From an uncultured Bacillota bacterium (GTDB taxonomy: Bacteria; Sysuimicrobiota; Sysuimicrobiia; Sysuimicrobiales; Segetimicrobiaceae): a stretch of DNA of 64,000 nt. The position numbers were made by a program, and so were the translations under genes. This document shows positions 1 to 19,034 of the stretch, piece by piece. The DNA is taken from positions 305,822 to 369,821 of the forward strand of contig CAWDRG010000015.1 of the NCBI GenBank assembly GCA_963804645.1. The letters run 5' to 3'. Below the pieces are notes generated by a model. The model was not told the DNA's origin. It was given only the letters and a program-made list of their open reading frames with translations, and did not search any database. Within the stretch, counting starts at the first letter, position 1. Each line of letters begins with the position of its first letter.

Positions 1-531
1 GACCCGGCCTTTGTGCAGCTGTATTTTGAGATGGCATTGCGGGTCAACTACATGACGTTCGAGCAAATCGAGGACACTCGAGAATCGCTCGAGCGCGACG
101 TTGCGTACTCGGCAGCGCTCAACGCCACGCCGGAAGATATAGGGGCGCTCGAAGATGCGATGCGCCGCGTCTTGGAGGCGAAGAGTGCAGAAGCCGGCGC
201 CGAGGCGGATTACGAATTCCATCTCCACCTGGCGCATGCCACGCATAATCCCGTCATTTCGCTGATCTTGGGGGGACTCTCGTCAGTTCTACATCAGGTC
301 TTTCTTCGTCGGCAGCGTCTCGTCCGAGGAGTGCCGGGTGGCGCCGTGCGTACGAACAACACCCACATCGCCATCCTCGACGCCGTGCGTGACCACAATG
401 CGAACCGCGCGTTGGCCGCCATGGACGAACACTTTTTGGCTTGGAACCGAGAGTCGGCCAGAGCTTCCCTACGTCGACACAAGGCCGGAGTGAGGGAACG
501 GACTCAAAAAAGGGTGCGGTCACTTTCGTGA
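1..531 (+). CDS. GntR/FadR-family transcriptional regulator, C-terminal FCD ligand domain (5' end off-window)
   Basis: The frame is open from base 1 to the stop at 529-531. It shows a helical FCD-type pattern (DYEFHLHLAHATHNPVISLILG, HIAILDAVRDHNANRALAAMDEHF). The wHTH domain would lie upstream of the window. Confidence 0.7.
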   Translation, partial: DPAFVQLYFEMALRVNYMTFEQIEDTRESLERDVAYSAALNATPEDIGALEDAMRRVLEAKSAEAGAEADYEFHLHLAHATHNPVISLILGGLSSVLHQVFLRRQRLVRGVPGGAVRTNNTHIAILDAVRDHNANRALAAMDEHFLAWNRESARASLRRHKAGVRERTQKRVRSLS

Positions 532-621
532 TCGTAGTGCGATCGGACATGCACCGAATGGACGGATACGCTGTGGCTTGTTCGTGGGGGATGCTCGCAT
601 CTACGACCAGGGGAGGCGACG

Positions 622-1917
622 ATGATGGGTGGTCCAGGGTCCGTTAGCGATCGGGCGAGTGCGCGTGTAAGGAATCAGTTCGGGAGGCGGGCATTTGTGC
701 GCGGGGCGGGATTGGCGGCACTCGGCCTGCCGAGCGTCGCTGTCGCCTTGGAAGCGTTGGTCCCTGGCACGGCTGAGGCGGCATTGCAAGAGGTTCGTAT
801 CGGTACCGTCACCTCACTCACGGGTGAACGTGCCGAGAATGGTAAGAGTGAGCAACTGGGAGCGCAGATGGCGGTTGACGAAATCAATCAGGCGGGCGGG
901 GTCGGCGGCAAGTTTCGGCTGAAGTTCGTTGTGTACGATGACGAGACCAAGGTCGAAATTGCGGCGGCCTCGGCACAAAAGCTCGTCGGGGACGGAGTGC
1001 AAATGATGCTCGGCACTCTATTCTCGACCTACGACCTGGCGATTAATCCGATCATCAACAAGGGTAAAGTGCTCATGATTGTGTGGGACAATACCTCGCC
1101 CAAGATCACCCTCCAAAACCCCTACGCCTTTCGAATTCTCTATACGGTACCGATTCAAGGGTACGCCGATGCCGAATTCATGGCGAAAAACCTGAACCTC
1201 ACTAGCATCGCGACCATGACAGATAATGCGAATGAAGGCAACACGGCAACGACCGATCGTGTGGTCAGCGTGTTCACGAAGAAATTCGGGGGCAAGGTCG
1301 TTGCCCAGGAATCGTTTCAGTTGGGCGATAAGGATTTCAAAGCGCAGCTGACGCGCATCAAGCCGACGGCGGCGCCATGTCTCTATATCTCCGGGTCGGT
1401 GCAAGAGGTCGCATTAATCGCGAAGCAATGCCTTGAGATCGGCTACAAGCCCACGTATCTCATGGGCCCAGACTCGTGGGAGGATGCGACGATTTTCACG
1501 CTGGCCGGGAAGGAGATGCAGCAAGATTTCCACTCCTTTTACAGTACGGTCCTTGTGAGCGACGATCCGGACCCGGATTTTCAGCGATGGGCCAAGAGCT
1601 TCACAGCCAAGTATCCCAATTGGGCCCCGGGGCCAGGCGCCTTGGAAGCGTTGTCGTACGACGCCGTCAAGGTCGCCGCGTGGGCGCTCGGCAAAGCGGG
1701 ACGGTACAACGGCGACGCGATGCGTCAGGCGCTGATGACCTTGGTGAACGCACCAGCCGCGAGCGGTATCAAAGGTCTGGTGACGTCGAAGTCGGGACTG
1801 ACGTTCAACAGCACGCGTGACGCCATTACTCCGGTGACGATCGCAGAACTGAAGAACAACAAATTCACGTACTACGCGAAGATTCAGCCGACGGCCGAAA
1901 TGGCGAAATCGTATTGA
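622..1917 (+). CDS. Leu/Ile/Val-family (type 1 periplasmic-binding fold) ABC substrate-binding protein with Tat-like signal
   Basis: GGGGAGG lies 5 nt upstream of ATG 622. Signal peptide GRRAFVRGAGLAALGL...AEA. Family pattern RIGTVTSLTGERAENG, AVDEINQAGGVGG, LSYDAVKVAAWAL. Confidence 0.85.
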   Translation: MMGGPGSVSDRASARVRNQFGRRAFVRGAGLAALGLPSVAVALEALVPGTAEAALQEVRIGTVTSLTGERAENGKSEQLGAQMAVDEINQAGGVGGKFRLKFVVYDDETKVEIAAASAQKLVGDGVQMMLGTLFSTYDLAINPIINKGKVLMIVWDNTSPKITLQNPYAFRILYTVPIQGYADAEFMAKNLNLTSIATMTDNANEGNTATTDRVVSVFTKKFGGKVVAQESFQLGDKDFKAQLTRIKPTAAPCLYISGSVQEVALIAKQCLEIGYKPTYLMGPDSWEDATIFTLAGKEMQQDFHSFYSTVLVSDDPDPDFQRWAKSFTAKYPNWAPGPGALEALSYDAVKVAAWALGKAGRYNGDAMRQALMTLVNAPAASGIKGLVTSKSGLTFNSTRDAITPVTIAELKNNKFTYYAKIQPTAEMAKSY

Positions 1918-2119
1918 CGTCCTGTACGGAGCGTGAGCGGGGGGGTGTGGTTCCACCGCCGGTGAAACGTATCCCGTCATGTCGACTGCTGACGCGGCGG
2001 GGCACGTTCGTTCGCCGCGGCCGAGACAAGTTCGGGCCGGACGGTTCGGGTGCCGTGGGGGGCGCGTTGACCGCCGGCCGCCGTGGGCGCGGCGCCGAGG
2101 GGTAAGTTCGCCGTAGTGC

Positions 2120-3013
2120 ATGGACACGATTCTTCAGCAGCTGGTTAATGGATTTACGTCGGGCGCGACGTACGCGATGCTCGGCCTCGGGCAGGCCATG
2201 GTCTACGGGGTCCTGCGCCTGATTAATTTCGCCCACGGCGACATCTTCATGGTCGGGGTGTTCGTGGGTTGGCTGATCGGCACGTATCTCGTTCAGGCGT
2301 TTGCCTGGCCGCTGCTGCCCACCATGTTTGCGGCGATGGTGACGTGCGCGTTCGCGAACTATTTGGTCGAACGACTCGGGTACCGACCATTGAGAACGGC
2401 TCCGCGCCTGTCGATGTTGTTATCGGCGCTGGCAATTTCTGAGTTTCTCGAGAACGGTACCCAGGCATTGACGGGGACGCAGCTGCATGAATTTCCGAAC
2501 CTGATTCCACCGACCGTGTATCATTGGGGATCAATTTTCGTCGCGAACGCGGATCTTCTGGTTGCGGTTACCACGTTGCTAGCCATGATCGTCGTCGATT
2601 TCATGGTCTATCGCACTCGTATGGGCAAGGCCATGCGCGCGGTGGCGTACAATATGCAGGCCGCGATCCTGATGGGGATTAATGTCAATGCAGTCGTGTC
2701 GTGGGTGTTTGTGGTCGGGGGAGCGCTCGCCGGTCTCGCAGGGATTGTCTACGGCCTCGCCTATCCTGCGATCGACCCGTACATGGGTCTCCTCCCTGGG
2801 TTGAAAGGGTTCGTGGCCGTTGCCATTGGCGGTATTGGCAGCGTCAGGGGCGCCGTGTTGGGCGGCTTTCTTCTGGGGTATGTTGAAACCTTTGCCGGAG
2901 GGTTCCTCCCCAGCGCGTTGAGGGATGCCATTGCGTTCTTCCTGCTGATCGTCATCCTGATGATTCGACCGAGTGGTCTGCTCAACGTGCCCTGGTACAC
3001 GGAGCGCGTCTAG
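2120..3013 (+). CDS. livH: Branched-chain amino acid ABC transporter permease (LivH type)
   Basis: 297-aa polytopic protein with LivH-like motifs (INFAHGDIFMVG, IGGIGSVRGAVLGGFLLG). Confidence 0.9.
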   Translation: MDTILQQLVNGFTSGATYAMLGLGQAMVYGVLRLINFAHGDIFMVGVFVGWLIGTYLVQAFAWPLLPTMFAAMVTCAFANYLVERLGYRPLRTAPRLSMLLSALAISEFLENGTQALTGTQLHEFPNLIPPTVYHWGSIFVANADLLVAVTTLLAMIVVDFMVYRTRMGKAMRAVAYNMQAAILMGINVNAVVSWVFVVGGALAGLAGIVYGLAYPAIDPYMGLLPGLKGFVAVAIGGIGSVRGAVLGGFLLGYVETFAGGFLPSALRDAIAFFLLIVILMIRPSGLLNVPWYTERV

Positions 3014-3022
3014 GCACACGCG

Positions 3023-4027
3023 ATGAACGTCCGCGTTCCGCCGGGGAGACGCGATTTTTATCGAGGCCGCTATGTCGTGGTATGGGCTGCCGTCGCTTTA
3101 GGATTGTTCGTGACCATCTACGTTGAGCAAAGTGGCATTCTTGGCGGCTATGTGGTGCTGCTGCTCCAGATCATGGGCATTTATGCCATTGAAGCGATGG
3201 GCTTGGGCTTGATCAACGGCTTCACCGGGCAGTTTTCGCTGGGTCACGCCACGTTCATGGGGATCGGTGCCTATGCCGCGGCATTGCTGACCAGCAATGT
3301 TGGCCTGCCGTTTCTGCCCACGATGCTCCTTGGAGGACTGGCGGCGGGGGGGGCGGCCCTGCTGTTGGGGATACCGATCTTTCGGTTGCTGGGAGACTAC
3401 GTCGTTGTCATTACCCTTGCGATCAATCTGATCTTTGTCAACCTGCTGAACAATTTCGGCTATGCCGGCGGACCTAGGGGATTTGAAGTCACTCAAGCCT
3501 ATGACACGCTTCCCTGGATCTACGCCTGGGTGGTGATCACCTATGTCGTCCTGCGCAACTTGGTGTTCTCCAGTCACGGGCGCGCAATCTTGGCAGTCAG
3601 AGAAGATGAAACCGCTGCCCCGCTGCTTGGGGTCAATCCGTATAAGTACAAACTGATTGCGTTCTCGCTGGCGTGCTTCTTTGCCGGCGTCGGCGGCGCC
3701 CTGTCGGCGCATACCTTGATGTTCATTGCGCCGCCCGATTTCTCGTATTTGGTCTCCATCGATATCCTTGTCATGACGCTGCTGGGAGGGAGCGGGAGCC
3801 TCTTTGGCGCCATTCTCGGCGCCGTCACATACCGCGTCGTGCTGGAGCTCCTTCGACCCCTTGGGGTCTTGCGCATGTTGGTTACGCCGGTGTTACTGCT
3901 CACCATCATCATGGTGAAGCCAACCGGTTTGTACGGGCAGAGGGAACCGCGGATTTTTCGCGATCACTGGGCGGATGAACCGATCGTGGCTCGTCGTCGC
4001 GGGTTCGGGACGACGGAAGAACAATGA
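3023..4027 (+). CDS. livM: Branched-chain amino acid ABC transporter permease (LivM type)
   Basis: 334-aa polytopic protein with the GQFSLGHATFMGIGAY motif. Its 3' end overlaps the next gene by 4 nt. Confidence 0.9.
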   Translation: MNVRVPPGRRDFYRGRYVVVWAAVALGLFVTIYVEQSGILGGYVVLLLQIMGIYAIEAMGLGLINGFTGQFSLGHATFMGIGAYAAALLTSNVGLPFLPTMLLGGLAAGGAALLLGIPIFRLLGDYVVVITLAINLIFVNLLNNFGYAGGPRGFEVTQAYDTLPWIYAWVVITYVVLRNLVFSSHGRAILAVREDETAAPLLGVNPYKYKLIAFSLACFFAGVGGALSAHTLMFIAPPDFSYLVSIDILVMTLLGGSGSLFGAILGAVTYRVVLELLRPLGVLRMLVTPVLLLTIIMVKPTGLYGQREPRIFRDHWADEPIVARRRGFGTTEEQ

Positions 4028-4800
4028 CGCCCTATCTCCTTGAGGTTCGCGGTGTCTCTAGGCGGTTCGGTGGCGTTCGGGCGCTCACAAATCTGAGCCT
4101 TAATGTGGCGTTCGGCGAAGTCCTCGGCCTCATCGGACCCAACGGCTCGGGAAAGACCACGACATTTAATGTCATCACGGGAGTGTTTGCACCCTCCGAT
4201 GGGGACGTCACATTCATGGGCCGTCGGATATCAGGCTTCCCATCATACGCGATTACCAAGTTGGGTATCGCAAGAACATTCCAGAACATTCGGATGCTCA
4301 AGGGTCTGACCGTGCTCGACAACGTGCTTGTCGCGGCACACCTACACCACAAAGTCCCCCTGTGGCACGCGTTGGTCCGGACCCCGGTCTCTACTGCCGA
4401 GGAGCGACGCCTCCGTCAAGAAGCCCGCGAATTGCTCGATATTTTTGGAGTGTTGGATCGCGCCAGTGAGGTGTCGGGCAGTCTCCCATATGCGACCCAA
4501 CGGCGCGTAGAAATCGCACGCGCATTGGCCACGCACCCCCAATTGCTCCTGCTGGATGAGCCGACGGCCGGCATGAATCCTCGTGAGCAGGATGAGATCA
4601 AGGACCTCATCCGATTCATCCGGGATGAATTTCGGCTGGCAATCATTCTCGTCGAACACAATCTGCGCGTGGTGATGGATCTGTGCCCGCGCATTGTCGC
4701 GATGGATTTCGGTCAGGTCATTGCCGAAGGTGCGCCGGCGGAGATCAAGCGACATCCGAAGGTGATCGAAGCGTATCTTGGATCCGAGGATGAGGCATGA
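4024..4800 (+). CDS. livG: Branched-chain amino acid ABC transporter ATP-binding protein (LivG type)
   Basis: Walker A GPNGSGKTT, Walker B LLLLDEPTAGMNP, LivG-type C-terminal tail. Start/stop overlaps on both sides. Confidence 0.9.
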   Translation: MTPYLLEVRGVSRRFGGVRALTNLSLNVAFGEVLGLIGPNGSGKTTTFNVITGVFAPSDGDVTFMGRRISGFPSYAITKLGIARTFQNIRMLKGLTVLDNVLVAAHLHHKVPLWHALVRTPVSTAEERRLRQEARELLDIFGVLDRASEVSGSLPYATQRRVEIARALATHPQLLLLDEPTAGMNPREQDEIKDLIRFIRDEFRLAIILVEHNLRVVMDLCPRIVAMDFGQVIAEGAPAEIKRHPKVIEAYLGSEDEA

Positions 4801-5519
4801 TGGGCGCGGCGCCACTGCTAGAGGTCATCGACCTCCACGTCCACTACGGGGGGATCGCGGCCCTCAAGGGGATTTCCTTCGAGGTCTACGAGGGTGAAAT
4901 CGTCACGATACTCGGCGCGAACGGCGCCGGCAAGTCGACGACGCTGCGGGCGATCTCGGGATTGGTGAAGCCGACTCGCGGCAGGATTCGGTTCCGCGGG
5001 GACGATGTGCACCAGGTGCCGGGATACCGGTTAGTGCAACGAGGAATCGTGCACGTCCCGGAAGGGCGTCTCATTTTCGCGAATCTGTCTGTGCGAGAGA
5101 ATCTCGATGTGGCGGCATACACGAGAAAGCCCGGCGCGCGGTTGGACGAGGATTACGAGCGGATTTATGAGATGTTCCCGAGGCTACGGGAACGGCTTCA
5201 TCTGCAGGCCAGCGCGCTGTCCGGTGGCGAGCAACAAATGCTCGCTATTGCTCGTGCCCTCATCACCGGGGGGACCCTGATGTTACTAGACGAGCCGTCC
5301 ATGGGACTGGCCCCGATTCTCGTGCGGGACGTGATCGACAAGATCTGCGAAATCAACCGCGCCGGGATGACGGTGCTGCTTGTCGAGCAAAACGCCTCGC
5401 TCGCGCTGAAAATTGCGACGCGTGCCTACGTGCTTGCGGAAGGCGAAATTGTGATGGCGTCCGCCGCCGGAGAGCTCGCATCACGAGAGGACATCCGGCG
5501 GGCATATCTTGGCGACTGA
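4797..5519 (+). CDS. livF: Branched-chain amino acid ABC transporter ATP-binding protein (LivF type)
   Basis: Walker A GANGAGKST, signature LSGGEQQMLAIARAL, Walker B LLDEPSMGLAP. Confidence 0.9.
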   Translation: MMGAAPLLEVIDLHVHYGGIAALKGISFEVYEGEIVTILGANGAGKSTTLRAISGLVKPTRGRIRFRGDDVHQVPGYRLVQRGIVHVPEGRLIFANLSVRENLDVAAYTRKPGARLDEDYERIYEMFPRLRERLHLQASALSGGEQQMLAIARALITGGTLMLLDEPSMGLAPILVRDVIDKICEINRAGMTVLLVEQNASLALKIATRAYVLAEGEIVMASAAGELASREDIRRAYLGD

Positions 5520-5593
5520 GCGTAGCACCGCGCCGTCGGCGATGGTCTACGCGGACGCTGATCGGGGCGCCGGTATGGGGAGGTCGTGGTGCA

Positions 5594-6517
5594 GTGCCGG
5601 GACTCACTGAGCCTGCCAAGACACCATGGTCGTCTGATCGGGTTGCGTTCGTCAACGGTCAGTTTGTCGAAGAGTGTCGTGCGACGCTGTCGATTTTTGA
5701 CCGGGGCGTGCTGTACGGAGATGCGGTATTCGAGGCAGCCTTTGCGTGGGATGGGTATATCTTCAAGCTTGATCGGCACCTGCGTCGAATGGACCAGGCA
5801 CTGAGAGCGGTATGCATAGACCTCCCCGTCTCCCTTGAGGAGCTGAAGGGGTATGTGATCGAAACCGTCCGGCGGAATCGGCTCAGGGACGCGTACATCA
5901 AGTGGATCGTTACACGTGGCGTTGGGCCAGGCATTCTGCTCGATCCCATTGGATGTGTTCCCAGCATCATCGTCATGGCACGCGAGTACCTGTTTTTGAC
6001 CGACCCCCAAAAGGCTCAAACTGGCATCCGGGTAAAGATTGCGCAGGTGAGACGGACGCCGCACGAATGCCTCGATCCGCGGATAAAAAGCGTAGGCTAT
6101 CTCAACCTGATTTTGGCGCGGATCGAGGCGATGAGCGGACGCTACGATGACGCCCTACTGCTGGACATGCAGGGGCGCCTGTGCGAAGCGCCCGGCTACA
6201 ATCTGTTCGTAGCGAGAGAGGGAGTTGTCCGCACCCCCGCCGAGGAGGTGCTGGAAGGCATCACACGCGAGACGGTGCTCGAATTGTGCCGCGAGTTGCA
6301 CATACCTGCCGCGGAGGACGACCTCATGCCCTACGACGCGTATACCGCGGATGAACTTTTTTTGACGAACACGGCCGGAGGCATTGTGCCAGTGATTTCG
6401 GTGGATGGGCGTCGTGTCGGCGCGGGCGTACCCGGACCAATCTGTCAGCGCGTGAGAGATGCCTACCGGTCGCTGATTGAGAGCCGCATTCACGGGACGG
6501 GAGTGTATGGGGCATAG
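5594..6517 (+). CDS. Class IV (fold-type IV PLP) aminotransferase, BCAT/D-amino-acid aminotransferase family
   Basis: FDRGVLYGDAVFE, catalytic-Lys context DPRIKSVGYLNLILA, EAPGYNLF, LEGITRE. GTG start with GGGGAGG upstream. Confidence 0.85.
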   Translation: MPGLTEPAKTPWSSDRVAFVNGQFVEECRATLSIFDRGVLYGDAVFEAAFAWDGYIFKLDRHLRRMDQALRAVCIDLPVSLEELKGYVIETVRRNRLRDAYIKWIVTRGVGPGILLDPIGCVPSIIVMAREYLFLTDPQKAQTGIRVKIAQVRRTPHECLDPRIKSVGYLNLILARIEAMSGRYDDALLLDMQGRLCEAPGYNLFVAREGVVRTPAEEVLEGITRETVLELCRELHIPAAEDDLMPYDAYTADELFLTNTAGGIVPVISVDGRRVGAGVPGPICQRVRDAYRSLIESRIHGTGVYGA

Positions 6518-6573
6518 CCGTCAAGCCAAGCGGCGATGCAACGAGATCGGACAGAACGGGCGGAGGGTGTCCA

Positions 6574-7833
6574 ATGGCGACTGAGCGAGCGCAGGATCGC
6601 ATTCGAGCCACGTATCACATCGAGACCTCGCTGCCCGTCGGGGAGGCCGCGGAAGCCTTAGCGAGAGAACAATCGACCGGCACGTTCGTCAGAGTGCCCG
6701 GGGAGACCGAGGCACTCCGTCAGCGCTTCGCGGCGCGCGTCGAAAGCATCACAGAGTTGGAGGGCGTCGATTGCCCGAGTCTCCCGGGTGCTCGGCGCGC
6801 GAAGGAGAAATACTCTCGTGCCCGGGTGGTCATCTCATTTCCTCTCGAGAATGTTGGGCTTTCCTTGCCAAACCTCCTGACGACCGTTGCGGGAAATCTG
6901 TACGAGCTGGCCGAGCTCTCCGGCGTGCGGTTGCTCGACATTGAGATCCCCGATGCCTTCATGGGAGCGTACCCGGGGCCGCAGTTCGGCATTGACGGAA
7001 CGCGGCAGCTGACCGGCGTATATGAACGTCCAATCGTTGGGACGATTGTCAAGCCAAGTGTGGGATTTTCGCCGCGGGAAACGGCGGCGCTCGTCGAGGT
7101 GCTCGCACAAGCCGGCCTGGACTTTACCAAGGATGACGAATTGATCGCCAATCCCCCGTATTCCCCGCTCGCTGAGCGTGTCAAGGAGGTCATGCCCGTT
7201 ATCAATCGGGCGGCGGATCGGACCGGGAAGAAAATGATGTTCGCGTTCAACATTACCGGTGACGTCGACGATATGTTACGCCATCACGACACCGTGCTTG
7301 ACGCGGGTGGCACCTGCGTGATGGTCAGTCTGCTAAGTGTCGGGTTGGCGGGATTGGCGCATCTCAGGCGCCACTGTCAATTGCCGATTCACGGACATCG
7401 AAATGGGTGGGGAGCGTTGACCCGGGACCCTTACTTGGGCATGGCATTTCGGGCGTACCAGAAGCTGTGGCGTCTCGCGGGGGTTGATCATCTTCATACG
7501 AATGGGTTGCGGAACAAGTTTGCGGAGCCGGATGACTCGGTAATTGCGTCCGTCAAATCTTGTCTGTCCCCGCTGTTCTCGGGGTATCGGGTCATGCCCG
7601 TGCTGTCGTCGGGTCAATGGGCTGGACAGGTTCCAGACACGTACGAGCGCCTTGCGAGCGTGGATCTCATGTACCTCTGTGGTGGAGGGATCATGGGGCA
7701 TCCGGAAGGGGTTGCGGCCGGCGTTGCCAGCGTTCGTCAGGCCTGGGAAGCGGCCTTGCTCGGGAAATCTCTTGAAGACTATGCTCACCAACACGTCGAG
7801 CTTCGGCTGGCTCTCGCCACGTTCGGTCGATGA
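6574..7833 (+). CDS. RuBisCO-like protein (form IV RLP, large-subunit homolog)
   Basis: 419 aa with GGAGGG upstream. RuBisCO large-chain motifs are present: GTIVKPSVG, LDFTKDDE, IHGHRNG, GVDHLHTNGLRNKF, PVLSSGQ, CGGGIMGHPEG. No small-subunit or PRK gene is nearby. Confidence 0.85.
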   Translation: MATERAQDRIRATYHIETSLPVGEAAEALAREQSTGTFVRVPGETEALRQRFAARVESITELEGVDCPSLPGARRAKEKYSRARVVISFPLENVGLSLPNLLTTVAGNLYELAELSGVRLLDIEIPDAFMGAYPGPQFGIDGTRQLTGVYERPIVGTIVKPSVGFSPRETAALVEVLAQAGLDFTKDDELIANPPYSPLAERVKEVMPVINRAADRTGKKMMFAFNITGDVDDMLRHHDTVLDAGGTCVMVSLLSVGLAGLAHLRRHCQLPIHGHRNGWGALTRDPYLGMAFRAYQKLWRLAGVDHLHTNGLRNKFAEPDDSVIASVKSCLSPLFSGYRVMPVLSSGQWAGQVPDTYERLASVDLMYLCGGGIMGHPEGVAAGVASVRQAWEAALLGKSLEDYAHQHVELRLALATFGR

Positions 7834-9185
7834 GCGCGGGTCCTCAACTGCTCGCCACGTTCTATGGGGACGATTTTACGGGGGCCACGGATGCAATGGA
7901 GGCCCTTGCGGTTGCGGGTGTGCCGACGATTCTCTTCCTGGACCCCCCAGATCTCGCAGATTTAAGACAGCGCTTCCCCGATGTCCGTGCCGTAGGCATT
8001 GCGGGGACGAGTCGTGCGCTGACTCCAACAGAAATGGACGTACAGTTGCCCGCTATTTTCGAGAAGATGAATCGCTTGGGCGCTCGGCTGGTTCATTATA
8101 AAGTCTGCTCGACGTTTGATTCGTCCCCGGAGATCGGCAGTATAGGGCGAGCCATCGATGTTGGTCAATCGGTATTTCGGTCACCGTTTGTGGCACTGGT
8201 CGTGGGCGTGCCCGTACTTCGGAGATATTGCGTCTTTGGCAACCTGTTCGCATCCGTGGGAGATCAGACATTTCGTCTGGACCGTCATCCGACGATGAGT
8301 CGCCACCCCGTGACTCCCATGCGTGAGGGCGACTTGCGCGTGCACCTGTCCGATCAGACCGACAAATCCGTCGCCTTGTTCGACATCTTACACTTGACTG
8401 GCACGTCGACGGAAGTGGACCATCGGTTTGCCCGGATGCTCGAAACGCAACCGGACATTGTTTTATTTGATGTTCTGGACGAACCGATGCTTACCGAGGT
8501 CGGCCGGTTGATTTGGCGACAGGCCACATGTGGCACAATGTTCGTGGTAGGTTCCTCGGGTGTCGAATACGCATTGACGAGACAGTGGACGAACGATGGT
8601 ATCCTATCGAACCCTACGCGGTATCCGTTGGTTGGGCCAGCGGATCGTCTCGTCGTGGTAAGCGGTAGCTGTTCGCCGGTTACCGAACAACAGATCAGAT
8701 GGGCGGTCGATCACGGGTTTGCGACGATACCCGTCGATACGGTCAAATTAGTTGACCGGGATCATTCTGCGGCGGAAGGCGCCCTCGCCGTTCGGCAAGC
8801 GCTCGACGCACTCGCGGACGGGCGGAGTGTTGTGCTTCACGCCTGTTTAGGCCCGCACGATCCTCGGCTTGCGGCTGCCCGACTGCGGAGAGCCGAGAAT
8901 GGCTACAATCTGGGCGACCAACTGGGGACAATTCTGAAGACCGTCCTGGAGCACACTGACGTGCGTCGAGCTGTTGTGGTAGGCGGAGATACCTGCGGGC
9001 GCGTCGTCCGGCTCCTGGGGGTATCGGCTCTTGAAATGATCGCTACCACCGAACCGGGCGCTCCCCTATGTCGCGCCTACTCGGCGGACCGGCGGATGGA
9101 CGGCCTTGAACTAATCTTGAAGGGCGGGCAGGTTGGCAGAGCCGGCTACTTTGAGAATGTGCTTGCTGGGACGGCGGGAGAATAG
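7830..9185 (+). CDS. Four-carbon acid-sugar kinase family protein (DUF1537; OtnK/DtnK/OiaK-like)
   Basis: N-terminal FYGDDFTGATDAMEAL signature of DUF1537 and a two-domain length of 451 aa. The start overlaps the RLP stop (ATGA at 7830-7833). Confidence 0.85.
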   Translation: MSAGPQLLATFYGDDFTGATDAMEALAVAGVPTILFLDPPDLADLRQRFPDVRAVGIAGTSRALTPTEMDVQLPAIFEKMNRLGARLVHYKVCSTFDSSPEIGSIGRAIDVGQSVFRSPFVALVVGVPVLRRYCVFGNLFASVGDQTFRLDRHPTMSRHPVTPMREGDLRVHLSDQTDKSVALFDILHLTGTSTEVDHRFARMLETQPDIVLFDVLDEPMLTEVGRLIWRQATCGTMFVVGSSGVEYALTRQWTNDGILSNPTRYPLVGPADRLVVVSGSCSPVTEQQIRWAVDHGFATIPVDTVKLVDRDHSAAEGALAVRQALDALADGRSVVLHACLGPHDPRLAAARLRRAENGYNLGDQLGTILKTVLEHTDVRRAVVVGGDTCGRVVRLLGVSALEMIATTEPGAPLCRAYSADRRMDGLELILKGGQVGRAGYFENVLAGTAGE

Positions 9186-9237
9186 TGTCACCCAGCTATT
9201 GGACGAGTCAGGAGCGGGAGCGTAGCGTGGATCTTCT

Positions 9238-9261
9238 CGCGACGGCACTCCTATCGTCGCG
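9238..9261. terminator. GC-rich hairpin between convergent genes (candidate bidirectional terminator)
   Basis: CGCGACG-gcactcctat-CGTCGCG gives a 7-bp perfect stem, followed by ttgtcc. It sits between the kinase stop (9185) and the BKACE stop (9355). Confidence 0.3.
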
Positions 9262-9354
9262 TTGTCCTGAGTGAAAAAAGTGAAATGAGATTTGCCCCAG
9301 CCCGTTCCAAGTCGGTCCGAACAGTGCGCCGGTCGCTTCAGCAATCCAACGTTC

Positions 9355-10161
9355 TCACGTGTCAACCCCCAAGATCTTTCTGGTCGTCTCTGCAGAGGCG
9401 ATGTTCCGCCCTGCCGCTTCAGCTGCCCGTACCACTTCCTCTACCAATTCGGCATTTGATCTCGCGCGGGTGCCGTCGCTTAGGAATGGTCCATCTTCGT
9501 ATCCAACCCGAGAATGTCCGCCGAGTTCGAACGCAAGGCTGAGGTCTTTGATTCCTCGGGTGTGATAACGGGTCAAGAACCAGACACTATTCTGCGGAAT
9601 CTCCCTCAGATACAATTCCACGTACTCTTGCTTGAAAGGCAACGCATTGGGGACATCGAACACAAAATTAAACAGGTAGGGGGGGGCGATGAGGTGCGCA
9701 TCGGCCAGTAATCCGACGGTTCTCAAGTGGGAGAGATCAAAAACGGTCAGCGTGGGCTTCAGGGTTCGCCGCTTCAGTGCGTTCGCGTAGAAGAATATCT
9801 CGTCGCGCGGGTTTTTAAACACACCGTCGTACATGTTGACTGAGCCTAAATTGAGGGTACCAAGTTCCACGTGTGGGACCAGGAACCCAACACATCGCTC
9901 CCGCAAGCTATGCTCGGGGGCACCTCCCGTGGAGACCTCAATCATGACCCGACAGGTGGCCTTGATCTCCTCGACTTGGACGCGAAATAATCCGTCGTCA
10001 ACGGTTTGTAGTCCGTGAGCATCGCGAACGTGCAGGTGCACTATGGAAGCCCCGCTGTTATACGCCCCTCTGACTTCTTCTACGGTATCGCTGGCTGCGG
10101 GCAGTTTTTCGACTTGTTTCTCGCCCGGGTAGGGCGCCACACAGATGATGAGATCATTCAT
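9355..10161 (-). CDS. Beta-keto acid cleavage enzyme family protein (BKACE/DUF849; 3-keto-5-aminohexanoate cleavage enzyme-like)
   Basis: The start was moved to MNDLIICVAPYPGEK (ATG at 10161) with AAAGGAGAG upstream. BKACE pattern GASIVHLHVRD, EVSTGG, GGHSRVGYEDGPF. Confidence 0.85.
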   Translation of the reverse strand: MNDLIICVAPYPGEKQVEKLPAASDTVEEVRGAYNSGASIVHLHVRDAHGLQTVDDGLFRVQVEEIKATCRVMIEVSTGGAPEHSLRERCVGFLVPHVELGTLNLGSVNMYDGVFKNPRDEIFFYANALKRRTLKPTLTVFDLSHLRTVGLLADAHLIAPPYLFNFVFDVPNALPFKQEYVELYLREIPQNSVWFLTRYHTRGIKDLSLAFELGGHSRVGYEDGPFLSDGTRARSNAELVEEVVRAAEAAGRNIASAETTRKILGVDT

Positions 10162-10479
10162 GCGAGTGTCTCTCCTTTGAAGAAATGCCGACAGTGGGTC
10201 CCGCCCCATATTTGCCGGACACCCCGCGTGGTTCCTCCGCGCGGATTCCGGTGCGACGCCAGCCGGGACGATGCGATCCGTGGCGAGGTCCCCAGTCATG
10301 GGGGTCGCAGTGCACTTGCCCAGTGACGCGGCGTCCTGCTGTGCTATCGGCTATTCGGACGGCGGAAACGGTCGCTCAATCCTAACGCGCTCATGTGGGA
10401 CTTGGAAGGGCGTCGGCGAAGAGGCTGTCGCGCGACGAAACGATCGGCCCGACGGCGTCAGAACGGGAGGGAGGTTGAC

Positions 10480-11427
10480 GTGAGGTCCCCGATGGTCACC
10501 CGGGAAGAGTTCAATCGAATATTCGAGTCGGTGAAAAATTGGGGGAAGTGGGGATGGGACGATTCACTCGGGACACTAAACTATATCTCCGCGAAGAGAA
10601 TTTGCGAGGCGGCGGCTCTGGTGCGGACCGGTCGGCGCGTCTCGATGCAGATCCCGATCAACACGGTCGCGGGCCCGGACAATCGCAATCCGGCGCTTCA
10701 CTTTGTCATGCGAGCTTACGACATCAACGTAGGCTCGAGCGGGGTCAGATTTGCGCTCGATTTTCTCGGCATGGCCTGTCACGGTGACTGTCACACCCAC
10801 GTCGACGCGCTGTGCCACGTGTCCTGCGATGGGCTGACGTACAACGGCAAACCGGCCGAACAGGTCGTGACCTCAATGGGCGCGACTACCCAGGACATCA
10901 CGGCCTATGCGAGCGGCATCGTTGGCCGCGGCGTTCTGCTGGACGTACCGCGCCTGCGTGGGGCCAAGTGGCTTGAGCCTGGCGAGGCGGTGACCGCGAA
11001 CGAATTGGAGGCGTGCGAGAAGGTGGAGGGCGTTCGGTTAGGCGAGGGTGATATCCTTGTGTTTCGCACCGGCCACCACCGCCGCCGCGTAGCGCTCGGA
11101 TCCTGGAACAACGCCGCGCCCCCTGCCGGGATCGGAAAGGCCGGCTTGCATGTGGATGTGATCCCTTGGCTGCACGAGCGAAGGGTCGCCGCCTTTCTGC
11201 CAGACGGTGACGGCGAGACGGTGCCGAGTACTGTCGAGGGCATGAGCCACCCAATCCATCCGCTGATGGTCGTGGCGATGGGGATGTTGGCTTCCGACAG
11301 TCTTCAACTCGAAGACTTAGCCCATGCCTGCGAAGAGGAGGCCCGCTACGAGTTCATGGTGGCCGGTCTGCCGCTGCAGCTGCCGGGCGGGACCGGTTCG
11401 CCCTGGAACCCGATCGCCATCTTCTGA
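10480..11427 (+). CDS. Cyclase-family protein (kynurenine formamidase-like metal hydrolase fold)
   Basis: The HxGTHxDxxxH-like motif is present as CHGDCHTHVDALCH. The GTG at 10480 lies 5 nt after GGGAGGGAGG; the ATG at 10492 is an alternative start. Confidence 0.8.
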   Translation: MRSPMVTREEFNRIFESVKNWGKWGWDDSLGTLNYISAKRICEAAALVRTGRRVSMQIPINTVAGPDNRNPALHFVMRAYDINVGSSGVRFALDFLGMACHGDCHTHVDALCHVSCDGLTYNGKPAEQVVTSMGATTQDITAYASGIVGRGVLLDVPRLRGAKWLEPGEAVTANELEACEKVEGVRLGEGDILVFRTGHHRRRVALGSWNNAAPPAGIGKAGLHVDVIPWLHERRVAAFLPDGDGETVPSTVEGMSHPIHPLMVVAMGMLASDSLQLEDLAHACEEEARYEFMVAGLPLQLPGGTGSPWNPIAIF

Positions 11428-11964
11428 ACCATGCGCAGTTTCGCCGCACGGCCGATGATGTTCGGTGTCGACAACTGTGGCGTGTGGCCGCACGAGATCT
11501 GATCTGATAGCACTCACGATCCCCTCGGTCACAGAGGCGGTCTCGGTACCGAGCGCTTCGATACGAGGAAACCCGATGACGACGATCGTCTGACCTTCTC
11601 GGACTTGGGTGATATCCCCGAGCGGCAACGGCGGAATAGGGAGGGTCGGAATGCTCAATACGGCCACATCGGTGTCTTGGTCACCGCGGACGAGCCGTGC
11701 CGGCACCGGTGGGAAGTTGGGGAACTCGAGGACGATCTCGGTTGCCCCTCGCACGACATGATCGGCCGTGAGGACGAGTTGGTCGGCCACCAAGAACCCC
11801 GTACCCGAGGAGATCCCGTCGGGGCCTTTGGCGAGGATCACGGCTACACTCGGCTTGGCACTCGTCGCAACGGTCTCCACGTCTTGTGAATGCGCAGCAG
11901 GGATGTAGAGACTGCCCAATGCGACCGACGAGACGACCAAGCACGCAACGAGCACGACCCTCAT
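11317..11964 (-). pseudogene. Trypsin-like (S1C/HtrA-like) serine protease, apparently truncated before the catalytic Ser
   Basis: It has a signal peptide, the catalytic His context (LTADHVV) and the Asp context (DTDVAVL). After GIVSAIRS there is no GxSGGP segment in any frame, and the ORF tail runs antisense into the cyclase 3' end with a 111-nt overlap. Confidence 0.5.
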
Positions 11965-12024
11965 CGTGCAGCCTCCGCGCGGTGACGTCTTTGGATCGTT
12001 GGCACTTGTGCGCCCTAACGCCTA

Positions 12025-12185
12025 CGAACGCCGCCGGGGTGGGAAACTGCACCTCGCGACGAATGGTCTCGCGGATGGTCTCTGGTTCCACGCGCGCATA
12101 AATGCGGGTGGTGGCCGGGTTCTTATGACGCAGGTAGTCCTGGATGATCCGCATCAAACGGCTGACGTGGCGGTACGCCGGGCGG
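12025..12185 (-). mobile_element. Tyrosine recombinase (phage-integrase family) C-terminal remnant
   Basis: The minus-strand translation IIQDYLRHKNPATTRIYARV matches the LGHxxxxTTxxYxHV tail carrying the catalytic Tyr. The upstream HxxR box is compressed and no N-terminal domain is present. GC3 is high in this frame. Confidence 0.4.
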
Positions 12186-12746
12186 ATCCAGATCGAGGCG
12201 TTTTTCACATACAAGCCCGAGGCCGTGGCCTTGGAGCTGCTCGACACCGACGTCAGGGCGTTTGGGTTCGGCATCGACCTCCAAATGAGCGATCAGGCGG
12301 CCGGTCGAGCGGAGCGCGTCATGCCGCACCTCCGATACCTCAACGCCCTGGAGGGCCGTCGGCAGGAGAAATGGCAGTTCAAGCGCGCCGTCGAGCCCCT
12401 GCGCGACATCGGGGGCAGCGGCAAGACGCGGTCTCACTTTCATCTCGCGCCGACCGGGTGGGAAGACGTGCCCGGCGGCGCCCAGCGCCTGTGCTACAAT
12501 GAGATCGCGACCAAGCACAACTGGTACTACGTCCAGATCGGGTTCGATCTCGCGACGATGTCGTTCACGAGCTTCCGGTGCAACGATCGGATGTTCGATG
12601 CCACGGGAATCGCCCCGATGCGGTTTCCCGCGATGCCGAACCTGTGGTGCATGCTCAATCCCTTCCTGTTTGTCGAGGCGGACTCCGGAACACGGGCGTT
12701 TCTGTACATCGACTCCGTGCTCATTTCCGCGGAGCTGGACGCGTGA
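12144..12746 (+). CDS. Hypothetical protein (200 aa, no recognisable family)
   Basis: Third-position G/C bias is strong across 12180-12746 in this frame. The composition is protein-like (HNWYYVQIGFDLATMSFTSFRCNDRMFDATG...FLYIDSVLISAE). The start is uncertain. Confidence 0.6.
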   Translation: MIRIKRLTWRYAGRIQIEAFFTYKPEAVALELLDTDVRAFGFGIDLQMSDQAAGRAERVMPHLRYLNALEGRRQEKWQFKRAVEPLRDIGGSGKTRSHFHLAPTGWEDVPGGAQRLCYNEIATKHNWYYVQIGFDLATMSFTSFRCNDRMFDATGIAPMRFPAMPNLWCMLNPFLFVEADSGTRAFLYIDSVLISAELDA

Positions 12747-12988
12747 TCCGCCTCGGCAGTGCCGAAGGAGTAGGCAGCCCGCCCGTGGGTACTTGCGGAC
12801 GGCATGTTGTCTCGCGTCAGTTCGGATAGTCCTTTGGTACTATATCGGCCACGTTTCGTGTCGAAAGTCCCATTGCGGCGCCGGACGTCGGTCCCTAATC
12901 TATGTGACAGGTATGCCCGGTGAGGGCAGCGGAATCGACGAACTGGGCGCGGAAGCGGACGTCGATGGTCCGTGGACCATTGTGAGGG

Positions 12989-13468
12989 GTGGCGCGATTG
13001 CGGAGAAGCCTCGGCTGGGTGGGTCGGATTGCCGGCGGTCAGGAGCGCGGATTCACGATGATCGAACTCGTCGTGGCCACGCTCGTCTTGGCGCTGCTGG
13101 TCGCCCTCGCGCTTCCATCGTATCTCGCCGCGCGCAACAAGGCCGCGATCGATGAGGCGAACCACATGGCGCTTGAGTGGGAATCGCTGGCGTGGGGCTG
13201 CTATCTCCAGAGCCAGAATGCGAACGCGTGCAGCTCGAACACCGCGATCGGGTTCAGCGAGCAAAACGGCCAGTATTGGAACTGGATATCGCCCACGTAT
13301 TGGGTGGGGTCCGTGACCAGCGGCAGCGACCAGGCGTTGGCCGTGTCGTGGTTGGCGACGGGCGCCCGCGGGCTCGAGCTCGGAGAGACGTATACGGTCA
13401 CCCTCTTCGTCAGCAGCTCGACCAATCAGGGACAATCCAGCGCGACCTGTATTCCGCAGGGCTGCTGA
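12989..13468 (+). CDS. Type IV pilin / pseudopilin-like protein with prepilin N-terminal cleavage-methylation motif
   Basis: QERG|FTMIELVVATLVLALLVALALPSYL gives the G/F cleavage site, Glu at +5 and a hydrophobic helix. The C-terminal half has two Cys pairs (WGCYLQSQNANAC and ATCIPQGC). Confidence 0.8.
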   Translation: MARLRRSLGWVGRIAGGQERGFTMIELVVATLVLALLVALALPSYLAARNKAAIDEANHMALEWESLAWGCYLQSQNANACSSNTAIGFSEQNGQYWNWISPTYWVGSVTSGSDQALAVSWLATGARGLELGETYTVTLFVSSSTNQGQSSATCIPQGC

Positions 13469-13932: not shown

Positions 13933-14497
13933 TGGCTGCGCTCCTCTGTCCGTTCCGTGTGCCTGCCGGGGAGGCGGTGTGCGCCGCATCGGCGTCTTGG
14001 CCGCCGAGGAGACGTCCGGTGTCGGGATGGGCTCCGACCGCGGTGCGCGGCGCCGGCAGGTCGGTTATCCACATGCTGTTAGCCACATTGTCCAGATTTC
14101 CTCCGAACTGAGTTTCCGGATTGTCGGGTACATCGGGGTGTGATAGAACTGTTACCGGAGGCGCAAATCCTCCGGCAAAGGTAGCCGACTCAAACGCTCG
14201 CGCACGTGGACGCCGAAAGCTGGTCAAGTGTACTTCGGGGGTAACTCCGGAGAACGGCTGACGGGCAGTAGGCACCGGCGGCGAGGGCCGAAGACGGTGA
14301 AACGCCGGTGGGTGAGCGCCTCCCGTTTTGTGTTCATGTGACTGTGGCAGACATCATCACGCGTTCACGCGCCTGCGTTCCTGTACGGTGCGCCTGCGAC
14401 GCGCGGCCGAGGCGGCGCCGTGCCGCCGCCCGCGCCCCGGAGGAGTTCGCACCGACGGCGCGAAAGCGGCTCTAACGCATCGAGGCGGGGTGATCCT

Positions 14498-16054: not shown

Positions 16055-16157
16055 CACCGGCGCGGGCAGCTCCGGCCGCCTCGGATCTGCGCGGCGCGCG
16101 GCCTGACCGGCGCCGCCGCGACCGCGGGGACGGGCGCCGCCGTCCTGGGATCGTGGC

Positions 16158-18007: not shown

Positions 18008-18053
18008 CCGCGGGTCGGGCGGCGCACGCGCGCCGTCCCAACGAAGGAGGCTG

Positions 18054-18989: not shown

Positions 18990-19034
18990 CGGTCGGCCGG
19001 GGCCGGGCTGGAGCGTGCGGCGCGGATCGCGTCC

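Follow-up and report, generated by a model that had tools for sequence, protein, structure and literature searches.

A rare operon that may feed an imported amino acid into an apionate-type kinase and RuBisCO-like protein module

The operon at the beginning of the window, that is, of the whole 64-kb stretch of DNA analysed here, points to a so far undescribed route that brings a hydroxy-amino acid into central metabolism. In the reading that we prefer, to which we give a probability of about one half, it is a mobile, self-contained cassette in which an imported amino acid undergoes a transamination that replaces a dehydrogenase step and feeds a kinase and RuBisCO-like protein (RLP) module of the 3-oxo-isoapionate type. 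Judged by their sequences, the RLP and the kinase do not represent a new type of enzyme but are nested deep in the radiation of RLPs and kinases from apiose and apionate clusters. The novelty is what feeds this module, and not the module itself.

Nine co-directional genes occupy the + strand, each at the position given by a sequence-only reading of this DNA and each backed by Pfam. The first (1..531) is the 3' part of a gene for an FCD-family (GntR-type) regulator (Pfam FCD 2.9e-22); the FCD domain is seen, and the wHTH domain is not visible because the window begins inside the gene. Full-length GntR+FCD orthologues hold the same position in the related contigs L001, L089 and L090. Next come a Liv/Peripla_BP_6-type periplasmic binding protein with a Tat signal (RRAF; 622..1917; Peripla_BP_6 1.8e-47), permeases of the LivH type (2120..3013; BPD_transp_2 2.3e-41) and the LivM type (3023..4027; BPD_transp_2 3.2e-38), and ATPases of the LivG type (4024..4800; ABC_tran and BCA_ABC_TP_C) and the LivF type (4797..5519; ABC_tran 6.4e-33). 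They are followed by a non-canonical class IV (fold-type IV) aminotransferase (5594..6517; Aminotran_4, PF01063, 8e-51), the RLP (6574..7833; RuBisCO_large_N and RuBisCO_large) and an OiaK-like DUF1537 kinase of the four-carbon-acid-sugar type (7830..9185; SBD_N and NBD_C). The overlap of the RLP stop with the kinase ATG, which had also been claimed, can be read in the sequence as ATGA at 7830-7833. LivM/LivG and LivG/LivF overlap by 4 nt each, and the remaining intergenic gaps in the run measure 10-200 nt. The aminotransferase gene starts with GTG, with GGGGAGG 10 nt upstream. Beyond the nine genes, and convergent with the kinase gene, a gene on the - strand (9355..10161) for a BKACE-family (DUF849) Zn enzyme (PF05853, 1.8e-57) is a further member of the conserved set.

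All these genes lie in a low-GC block (1..13000; GC about 0.58-0.63, about 59% overall; GC3 0.63-0.75) beside host DNA with a GC of ~0.70 and a GC3 of ~0.89-0.91. The same contrast is seen in L001, an 84%-identical relative, the composition of the cluster being uniform and foreign in two hosts. In L086, two integrase genes follow the aminotransferase gene at a distance of ~7-9 kb downstream, on the side that faces away from the operon. The operon is rare and was probably acquired horizontally. Neither the BKACE gene nor this island of composition had been noted in the sequence-only reading.

The regulator, the Liv ABC importer, the class IV aminotransferase, the RLP, the kinase and the BKACE-family enzyme recur in three other metagenomic lineages, L001/L002, L089 (with L086) and L090 (with L087). 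In the window and L001/L002 the order is FCD, five Liv genes, aminotransferase, RLP and kinase, with the BKACE gene on the opposite strand. In L089 and L090 it is the aminotransferase gene that lies on the opposite strand, followed by FCD, a lipoyl-E1ab-AT3 block, five Liv genes, BKACE and RLP; L089 runs on with DAO and the kinase after the RLP, and the L090 contig ends just past the RLP. The four-contig set comprises two sub-lineages with rearranged gene order, and since only these two independently carry the arrangement, its apparent conservation is inflated by shared ancestry. DAO, AT3 and E1ab occur in L089/L090 but not in what can be seen of the window, which means that the two may use different pathways. 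The RLPs and the kinases of the set form exclusive clades (bootstraps 98/100 and 92/100, respectively), that of the RLPs nested among RLPs from apionate contexts.

These clades were compared with 80 genome loci carrying related RLPs. No class IV aminotransferase, BKACE or Liv gene was found nearby (0/80 for each); a PGDH_C-like gene was found in 50/80, a DUF1537 gene in 76/80, a lactonase in 25/80 and a GFO gene in 23/80. The PGDH_C-like gene is the probable D-apionate oxidoisomerase. Given also the recurrence of the set in other lineages, its arrangement goes beyond coincidence. When the whole 64 kb were searched by phmmer with the apionate lactonase, GFO_IDH_MocA, apiosidase and PGDH_C-like proteins of a genuine apiose cluster, no match was returned, and the apionate-cluster genes, including the PGDH_C-like one, were also not found in L001, L089 and L090. 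The locus does not have the co-located apiose dehydrogenase, apionolactonase and oxidoisomerase of a D-apionate cluster; the upstream enzymes of apionate breakdown could be encoded elsewhere in the genome, beyond the 64-kb window. The earlier statement that a sugar-acid dehydrogenase, an oxidoisomerase and a sugar transporter are all missing holds across these 64 kb. The sequence-only reading had also said that its pathway would fall if the RLP and the kinase lay within the apionate clades and the aminotransferase and Liv genes were not conserved neighbours. The former is what we find and the latter is not, as both neighbours recur beside this RLP/kinase lineage in four contigs.

The RLP belongs to form IV of the RuBisCO large-subunit superfamily, with both domains present (PF00016 1.7e-75, PF02788 1.1e-9) and with neither a small subunit nor PRK in its context; in the set of annotated genes, no CBB genes were detected. 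Its catalytic residues K160, K186, D188, E189, H275, R276, H308 and K315 are all retained. The score on the OiaX model NF042437 is 529 bits, below the equivalog cut-off of 700, and on that model the RLPs that genuine apiose clusters of the same radiation encode reach only 478-523 bits. Identity is only 48-51% to PGAP-named OiaX proteins, 73% to the RLP of an unmistakable apiose cluster, and 70% to P0039, whose submitter's label is the sole hint of OiaT. The RLP is assigned to the non-OiaX and perhaps OiaT-like radiation of apionate clusters. The kinase carries both DUF1537 domains (PF07005, SBD_N, 2.3e-53; PF17042, NBD_C, 4.7e-31) and scores 517 bits on the OiaK model NF042436 and 188 on that of OtnK, the 3-oxo-tetronate kinase. 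The OiaK equivalog cut-off of 700 leaves out the whole radiation, since the kinase of apiose cluster L003, 59% identical to ours, also reaches only 545 bits. Alignment with apiose-cluster enzymes revealed no clade-specific change in the sugar-binding domain. The notion that the pair is a separate functional class is therefore not borne out, as both proteins lie inside the apionate-context radiation with active site and sugar domain unchanged; for the same reason their intermediate should be 3-oxo-isoapionate-like.

In the lower module of the oxidative D-apiose/D-apionate pathway, as PMC6302742 and PMC11747546 cite it from Carter et al. 2018, the 3-oxo-isoapionate kinase OiaK works with an RLP, which is the decarboxylase OiaX in Agrobacterium radiobacter K84 and the transcarboxylase/hydrolase OiaT in Xanthobacter autotrophicus. 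There as here the RLP and the DUF1537 kinase are translationally coupled, and the catalytic residues and the FCD regulator are common to both. OiaX and OiaK are the best NCBIfam models for the window pair, albeit below both equivalog cut-offs, and its 73% and 59% identities are to the pair of an apiosidase/lactonase/transketolase cluster. Unlike apionate clusters, the window has neither an apiose dehydrogenase, an apionolactonase or a PGDH_C-like gene nor a sugar or TRAP transporter, but instead the Liv ABC importer, the class IV aminotransferase and the BKACE-family enzyme.

The importer and aminotransferase resemble the LIV-I (LivJ/K-HMGF) plus IlvE system in their five-component architecture, whereas all window components score well under the E. 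coli equivalog cut-offs; the LivH-type permease, for example, reaches 201 bits against a cut-off of 379. The nearest solved structures to the binding protein are the amino-acid binders 3td9, 4gnr and LivJ. The Ser/Thr/acidic main-chain triad of LivJ, S79, T102 and E226, which anchors the carboxylate and ammonium groups of an alpha-amino acid, is kept as S135, T158 and D284 and is conserved in 4/4 orthologues, although the alignment, at ~25-30% identity, is suggestive and not proof. The hydrophobic pocket that confers LIV specificity is not kept: N73, G206 (in an NEGN stretch) and S259 stand for Y18, Y150 and Y202, and G/N, S/F and N occur at the sites of Y150, Y202 and A101, respectively. By these residues, the protein looks like an alpha-amino-acid binder without a Leu/Ile/Val pocket.

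The aminotransferase is likewise an atypical member of its family. It scores 237.3 bits on the ilvE_I model (TIGR01122; cut-off 245.55), and at the positions of E. coli K159, E193, F36 and Y164 it carries K, E, F and Y, as in fold-type IV enzymes. In canonical BCATs the carboxylate sites of the P-pocket are formed by R40 and the GTAA beta-turn, and by Y95 polarised by R97 (PMC8320979). The window enzyme shares Y31, F36, Y95, K159, Y164 and E193 with IlvE but not the R40, R97 and GTAA turn of the BCAT carboxylate site, which are replaced by F, K and TAGG; G38 is replaced by A. It sits in a small clade (P0121-P0130), members of which pair elsewhere with E1ab and lipoyl modules (L088, L089), that is, with 2-oxo-acid chemistry. 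The closest outgroup aminotransferases (69-72% identity) adjoin ilvD/ilvC-like genes that pass NCBIfam cut-offs, so it might yet act as a plain BCAT. The BCAA:KMTB aminotransferase 8ioz is also among its relatives in the PDB. Methionine salvage, with MtnW and a BCAT-type KMTB transaminase, likewise unites an RLP and a class IV aminotransferase in one pathway; however, the window RLP belongs to neither the YkrW nor the DeepYkr type, a DUF1537 protein takes the place of MtnK as kinase, and no other salvage genes are present here.

The BKACE-family protein has a true length of 268 residues (from P0247) and orthologues in L001, L089 and L090. It matches the Pfam family over its full length and shares the HxH and E metal motifs of known members (here HLH and YED). 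It scores 200 bits against a cut-off of 382 for the Kce equivalog, the 3-keto-5-aminohexanoate cleavage enzyme, which is also of this family. The constant partner of the window type is an OiaK-like kinase: homologues with 59-60% identity adjoin such kinases in L174-L179, in two unrelated contexts, and these loci also have no PGDH_C-like gene. Another family member is the 2-deoxy-3-keto-ribonate cleavage enzyme of the oxidative deoxyribonate pathway (bioRxiv 10.1101/205583), a similar sugar-acid-type context in which a beta-keto acid is expected. The 3-oxo-isoapionate expected here has a quaternary C2, so a classical acetyl-CoA Claisen mechanism would not apply.

Because the aminotransferase and Liv genes are conserved, the apionate genes are missing and the binder is amino-acid-like, the sequence from imported amino acid through oxo-acid to kinase and RLP is the best reading of the locus; the general scheme of the sequence-only reading stands, and what falls is the novelty of the module enzymes. 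The FCD regulator would control the operon, and the Tat-exported binding protein with LivHMGF would import the amino acid. The class IV aminotransferase would convert it to a 2-oxo acid, a transamination standing in for the NAD-dependent oxidation by the (probable) D-apionate oxidoisomerase of ordinary clusters. The oxo acid would become, or already be, a 3-oxo-isoapionate-type beta-keto acid, HOCH2-CO-C(OH)(R)-COO-. This explanation needs an extra postulated rearrangement from 2-oxo to 3-oxo acid. The BKACE-family enzyme is a candidate for that step, a role to our knowledge without precedent in the family, and might alternatively decarboxylate the beta-keto acid. By homology, the OiaK-like kinase would phosphorylate the terminal CH2OH and the OiaT/OiaX-like RLP would split or decarboxylate the phospho-beta-keto acid, yielding 3-phosphoglycerate and glycolate, or erythrulose-1-phosphate and CO2. 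The substrate would be an alpha-amino acid with a polar side chain, probably polyhydroxylated and possibly branched. For the favoured class, a 2-amino analogue of D-apionate, the oxo acid would correspond to a trihydroxy form of the intermediate of ketol-acid reductoisomerase; we know of no such natural product. Only tentatively do we propose that the operon serves the catabolism of an unrecognised natural polyhydroxy branched amino acid, this analogue or a relative, with the aminotransferase, possibly together with a BKACE-family ketol isomerase, replacing the apionate oxidoisomerase and feeding a C-C cleaving RLP. BKACE would then be a non-Claisen partner of OiaK-like kinases.

The locus might instead hold two unrelated modules juxtaposed on one island, one for uptake of an amino acid (branched-chain or other) with a BCAT, and the other a D-apionate lower module (OiaK, OiaT/X and BKACE) with its upstream enzymes elsewhere and no metabolic link. 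This would agree with RLP and kinase functional sites indistinguishable from those of apiose-cluster enzymes, with the ilvD/ilvC-like neighbours of the nearest aminotransferase outgroups, with FCD regulators, which are also usual in apionate clusters, and with the pairing of BKACE and kinase without Liv or aminotransferase genes in L174-L179. We nevertheless regard it as unlikely. Liv, aminotransferase, RLP, kinase and BKACE genes stay together in two sub-lineages despite changes in order and strand, while Liv and the aminotransferase are absent from all other RLP loci compared, and the normally adjacent oxidoisomerase-like gene has been lost in every clade member. The tight spacing (56-74 nt gaps and 4-nt overlaps), a binding pocket that is not LIV-like and an aminotransferase without the BCAT R40 and GTAA also argue for a link, and a mobile cassette that encoded only half of a pathway would hardly be useful.

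Other substrates would keep that link. With 4-hydroxy-threonine, which the sequence-only reading had already named, or a similar C4 hydroxy-amino acid, transamination would give 2-oxo-tetronate and isomerisation 3-oxo-tetronate, which, once phosphorylated, the RLP would decarboxylate to dihydroxyacetone phosphate. In favour of this, 4-hydroxy-L-threonine is known to occur naturally as a toxic amino acid that a DUF1537 member phosphorylates (PMC10971088), the shift from 2-oxo to 3-oxo via an enediol is chemically easy, and L174 combines BKACE and an OiaK-like kinase with the C4-tetrose-type genes RpiB, Dak1/2 and AP_endonuc_2. The catabolism of L-threonate and D-erythronate by OtnK, OtnI, OtnC, DtnK and DenK (Zhang et al. 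2016, as cited in PMC10971088) follows the same logic of isomerisation, phosphorylation and decarboxylation, its DUF1537 kinases also acting on a terminal CH2OH beside a keto or hydroxy acid. The window kinase, however, is in the OiaK and not the OtnK branch, as its scores on the two models indicate; the decarboxylase is an RLP and not a class II aldolase-type OtnC; and the locus has no Hyi-type isomerase. With kinase and RLP so close to the apiose-cluster enzymes and the sugar sites unchanged, a C4 substrate appears improbable. Very improbable is a route in which L- or D-serine gives hydroxypyruvate and a thiamine-diphosphate enzyme joins two of these, in acetolactate-synthase fashion, into 3-oxo-isoapionate and CO2, from which kinase and RLP would form 3-phosphoglycerate and glycolate. 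3-Oxo-isoapionate (dihydroxy-acetolactate) would formally be the homo-ligation product of hydroxypyruvate, and the polar binding pocket, a PDH-E1-like E1ab with a lipoyl protein in the L089/L090 operon and a split transketolase after the aminotransferase gene in L087 are in keeping with this route, but no ThDP enzyme was found in the window cluster or L001, no class IV enzyme of this sort is known to transaminate serine, and the route would be wasteful beside hydroxypyruvate reductase and glycerate kinase.

Few functions of RLPs have been established, and with much effort, and every additional context has brought new chemistry to light. Were the link between importer, aminotransferase and module not real, the locus would be an ordinary apionate lower module beside an amino-acid transporter. 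If it is real, it would provide a new entry to the 3-oxo-isoapionate node, predict that soils contain a natural amino acid as yet unrecognised, suggest a role open to testing for the BKACE subfamily regularly paired with OiaK-like kinases, and be a clear example of how a pathway evolves by exchanging a dehydrogenase step for a transaminase.

The nine co-directional genes that the sequence-only reading had described at 1-9185 (+ strand) are all present there, and every one is confirmed by Pfam. They encode an FCD-domain regulator, whose gene is interrupted by the window edge, a Peripla_BP_6 binding protein, two BPD_transp_2 permeases, two ABC ATPases, one of which carries a BCA_ABC_TP_C tail, an Aminotran_4 class IV aminotransferase (AT), a two-domain RuBisCO-like protein (RLP) and a two-domain DUF1537 kinase. 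A tenth gene of the cluster encodes a 268-aa protein of the BKACE family and lies on the minus strand at 9355-10161, convergent with the kinase gene. The overlap of the RLP stop codon with the kinase ATG is seen in the sequence as ATGA at 7830-7833. Overlaps of 4 nt join LivM to LivG and LivG to LivF, and gaps of 74 nt and 56 nt separate LivF from the AT gene and the AT gene from the RLP gene. Scans for consensus promoters and terminators gave matches at or below shuffle expectation and are therefore uninformative. The whole 64-kb window contains no tRNA gene and no Rfam family at the gathering threshold.

The conservation of this neighbourhood was compared across genomes. Around P0002, an RLP 84% identical to that of the window, the genes are arranged as in the window (L001/L002), and around P0010 and P0020, two RLPs with 71% identity, the cluster occurs in a rearranged order (L089/L086 and L090/L087). 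In the rearranged version the AT gene and a GntR/FCD regulator gene point away from each other, and the latter is followed by genes for a 79-aa lipoyl protein, PDH-type E1 alpha and beta subunits, a HemL-like class III aminotransferase, the orthologous binding protein, LivHMGF, BKACE and the RLP. On the 3' side of the RLP gene, L089 has genes for a DAO-family oxidase and the kinase, and the L090 contig ends just past the RLP gene. In a neighbour-joining analysis of 200 RLPs, the four form an exclusive clade (98/100 bootstraps), which sits several nodes inside a group of RLPs from loci with lactonase, GFO and PGDH_C-like genes; the kinases co-diverge with the RLPs (kinase clade 92/100). Nesting in this apionate context speaks against a separate enzyme class, while the neighbours are conserved in a clade-specific manner. 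Of the 80 species-representative genome loci compared, all with RLPs of 55-67% identity, 76 have a DUF1537 gene as a neighbour, 50 a PGDH_C-like gene, 25 a lactonase gene and 23 a GFO gene; none has a neighbouring gene for a class IV aminotransferase, BKACE or a Liv-type binding protein or permease. The wiring of the RLP and kinase to an amino-acid importer and an AT is conserved, but it is specific to one small and rare clade.

In the cluster block, from position 1 to about 13 kb, GC content is about 0.59 (0.57-0.63) and GC3 0.63-0.75, and a sharp step leads to about 0.70 (0.69-0.72) and about 0.89-0.91, respectively, in the next 40 kb (16000-56000); at 56-64 kb GC goes down again to about 0.63. 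These steps suggest genomic islands in a high-GC host. The 84% relative, L001, displays the same GC contrast, and the contig of L086/L089 harbors a pair of integrase genes, located downstream of the AT gene at a distance of about 7-9 kb and on the far side from the operon. From the low-GC block, its counterpart in the relative and these integrases, we conclude that the cluster behaves as one horizontally acquired unit. The low-GC block also contains a Cyclase-family (kynurenine-formamidase-like) gene at 10393-11427 (+), divergent from the BKACE gene, and a trypsin-like peptidase ORF (11317-11964, -) that overlaps the 3' end of the Cyclase-family gene. A DUF6772 fragment at 12144-12746 (+) covers model positions 93-283 only, so truncation or a frameshift is possible. 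The region 14420-20129 encodes an Opp/Dpp-type ABC system (SBP_bac_5, two BPD_transp_1 permeases) and, after it, an AstE/AspA-family deacylase and an MFS_3 transporter; further ABC ATPase genes are found at 50697-53137.

The best NCBIfam models for the RLP and the kinase are the D-apionate-pathway decarboxylase OiaX (529 bits) and kinase OiaK (517 bits), both scores being under the equivalog cut-offs of 700 bits each. The RLP and kinase of L003, an apiose cluster with genes for apiosidases, apionate lactonase, GFO_IDH_MocA, FGGY kinase, split transketolase and AP_endonuc_2, score 523 and 545 bits on the same models. Since these genuine apiose-cluster enzymes score equally, a sub-cut-off score is no sign of a new function, and this argument was ruled out. 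The window RLP and kinase are 73% and 59% identical to their L003 counterparts. Identity of the RLP to PGAP-named OiaX from rhizobial plasmids is only 48-51%, which places it in a large non-OiaX branch whose members bear generic PGAP names. One cluster of this branch, from Cupriavidus pinatubonensis, comprises an SDR, a hydrolase, the RLP, the kinase, a TRAP transporter, NanR and a PGDH_C-domain protein. A 70%-identical RLP was labelled transcarboxylase/hydrolase by one submitter, a hint that the window RLP may be of this type (OiaT). According to PMC6302742, the RLP of A. radiobacter K84 is a decarboxylase and that of X. autotrophicus a transcarboxylase/hydrolase.

The window RLP keeps the RuBisCO-type catalytic residues K160, K186, D188, E189, H275, R276, H308 and K315 as well as the GGG phosphate loop, and K177 is replaced by Ser. 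Just two positions fixed in the clade are rare elsewhere, V327 and A317; the latter is located beside K315 of loop 6, and other RLPs have C, W, S or F there. Five kinase positions are clade-specific, all in the C-terminal nucleotide-binding domain, and comparison with other kinases revealed none in SBD_N. The search for clade-specific residues thus gave no sign of altered specificity in the pair. With these sites unchanged, the default substrate would still be 3-oxo-isoapionate(-4-phosphate) or a very similar compound. By sequence, both enzymes are members of known apionate-type families. An analogy with methionine salvage was ruled out, as it involves the wrong RLP clade and the wrong kinase family.

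The binding protein bears a twin-arginine signal (RRAF), and its closest solved structures are the amino-acid binders 3td9, 4gnr and Brucella and E. coli LivJ/LivK. In LivJ, a triad formed by Ser79, Thr102 and Glu226 holds the carboxylate and ammonium of the ligand. All four orthologous binding proteins keep Ser79, Thr102 and Glu226(Asp), in well-aligned motifs. Elsewhere in the pocket, the G of an N-x-G-N stretch takes the place of Y150, S or F that of Y202 and N that of A101; in the window protein, Y18 is also replaced by N and A100 by D. This pocket fits a predicted alpha-amino acid ligand with a polar, non-LIV side chain. A metagenome scan with the binding protein returned no match above 35% identity and no further contexts; its orthologues are very rare.

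The AT belongs to a clade of ten clusters (58-88% identity), with generic relatives set apart at about 55%. Compared within the E. coli BCAT scheme (PMC8320979) and its numbering, it keeps Y31, F36, Y95, K159, Y164 and E193 and is devoid of both polarising elements of the alpha-carboxylate site, with R40 replaced by F (and G38 by A), R97 by K and GTAA by TAGG. In the archaeal BCATs, which are its best canonical matches in the PDB, the corresponding sequences are FEGIR, YIR and GTAA. The clade has residues of its own, among them an Arg where E. coli has H27 (O-pocket floor), a Glu in the loop between the domains and, three residues ahead of the catalytic Lys, another Arg. Judged by its missing carboxylate-site elements, the AT is not a textbook BCAT. 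In L088 (866-15976), genes for a small lipoyl protein and E1 alpha/beta occur twice, each time near a class IV AT and an ABC importer; this AT and E1 module is repeated without a full E2, and an arginase gene is also present. The position of a clade member beside two lipoyl-E1 sets implies that the AT clade makes 2-oxo acids. An (R)-amine or beta-amino substrate, prompted by the TAGG turn and the lost R40, is disfavoured because of this E1 pairing and the alpha-amino-acid triad of the binding protein. Another locus with a same-clade AT, L085 (4624-20737; GCA_030157205.1, an NCBI MAG), is a hybrid cluster with ilvC-like and ilvD-like genes, an SBP_bac_3 ABC system, a DAO oxidase, a HemL-like class III aminotransferase, a DHDPS-like protein and a DoeB-like deacetylase. 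Its dehydratases comprise two enolase-superfamily members and one arabinonate-dehydratase-like IlvD/Edd protein, and it looks like a cluster for catabolism of an amino sugar-acid or an N-acyl hydroxy-amino acid.

The PGDH_C-like gene usually lies directly 3' of the kinase gene, has PDB relatives 5T57 and 3C24, and has no model in NCBIfam. This F420_oxidored/PGDH_C-domain gene (about 276 aa, generically named) is found at 12653-13483 of L003, at 15543-16373 of locus L180 and in the 50 genome loci counted among L005-L084. It probably encodes the D-apionate oxidoisomerase, as we infer from the fact that every other conserved gene of the five-gene apionate clusters has an assignment. Neither the window as a whole nor L001, L089 or L090 contains it.

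Every cluster of this type has a BKACE orthologue (identities of 83%, 56% and 54%). Homologues (59-60%) occur in two further sampled contexts (L174-L179), and in both they adjoin an OiaK-like kinase (405-416 bits on the OiaK model), as at L177 7080-11519 and L174 6919-10444. One context has the order FCD-BKACE-RLP-kinase, with a YkrW/MtnW-like RLP 33% identical to that of the window and FGGY, AP_endonuc_2 and split-transketolase genes close by, resembling an apiose-transketolase pathway. In the other (L174), BKACE lies 3' of an aldo-keto reductase gene, and RpiB, Dak1/2 and AP_endonuc_2 belong to the same cluster. None of the L174-L179 loci has a PGDH_C-like gene; in the sampled loci, BKACE and the PGDH_C-like gene never accompany the same OiaK-like kinase. 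The pattern points to a BKACE subfamily, so far uncharacterised, that would serve kinase-linked beta-keto sugar acids. 3-Oxo-isoapionate falls outside the classical BKACE mechanism because its C2 is quaternary, so we tentatively propose for this subfamily a 2-oxo to 3-oxo ketol shift or a beta-keto acid decarboxylation. OiaC may be a BKACE, which was not counted as evidence. A plasmid search with BKACE gave no match. BKACE enzymes participate in sugar-acid catabolism, for instance through 2-deoxy-3-keto-ribonate cleavage (bioRxiv 10.1101/205583), and the NetSyn BKACE paper mentions neither RLP nor DUF1537.

In chemical terms, the oxidoisomerase reaction is equivalent to two steps, an oxidation at C2 of D-apionate and then a ketol rearrangement of the acetolactate type. 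A 2-amino analogue of D-apionate and a transaminase would reach the identical 2-oxo intermediate, the trihydroxy analogue of 3-hydroxy-3-methyl-2-oxobutanoate. In the proposed pathway, an imported alpha-amino acid would be transaminated by the AT to a 2-oxo acid, and in the L089 variant may be oxidised by the DAO enzyme as well. The 2-oxo acid would then enter the 3-oxo-isoapionate node, to be phosphorylated by the kinase and cleaved or decarboxylated by the RLP.

The main rival is that an amino-acid uptake/BCAT module is merely juxtaposed with an apionate lower module. It is favoured by the closest AT outgroup members (72% and 69%), which sit directly 3' of an ilvD-like gene barely above the TIGR00110 cut-off, with an ilvC-like gene alongside in L085, but a cluster acquired as a single unit would more plausibly carry an entire pathway (importer, enzymes and regulator) than half a pathway, and we consider juxtaposition unlikely. 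A C4 route with 4-hydroxythreonine as substrate appears distinctly less probable, and serine, through ThDP ligation of two hydroxypyruvates to what is formally 3-oxo-isoapionate, is very improbable.

The interpretation drawn from the sequence alone thus stands for the conserved wiring to importer and AT and falls for the enzymes, which belong to known apionate-type families. A literature search for RLP, DUF1537 and aminotransferase together found no description of such a cluster; what is new is the importer/AT wiring, undescribed in the searchable literature.
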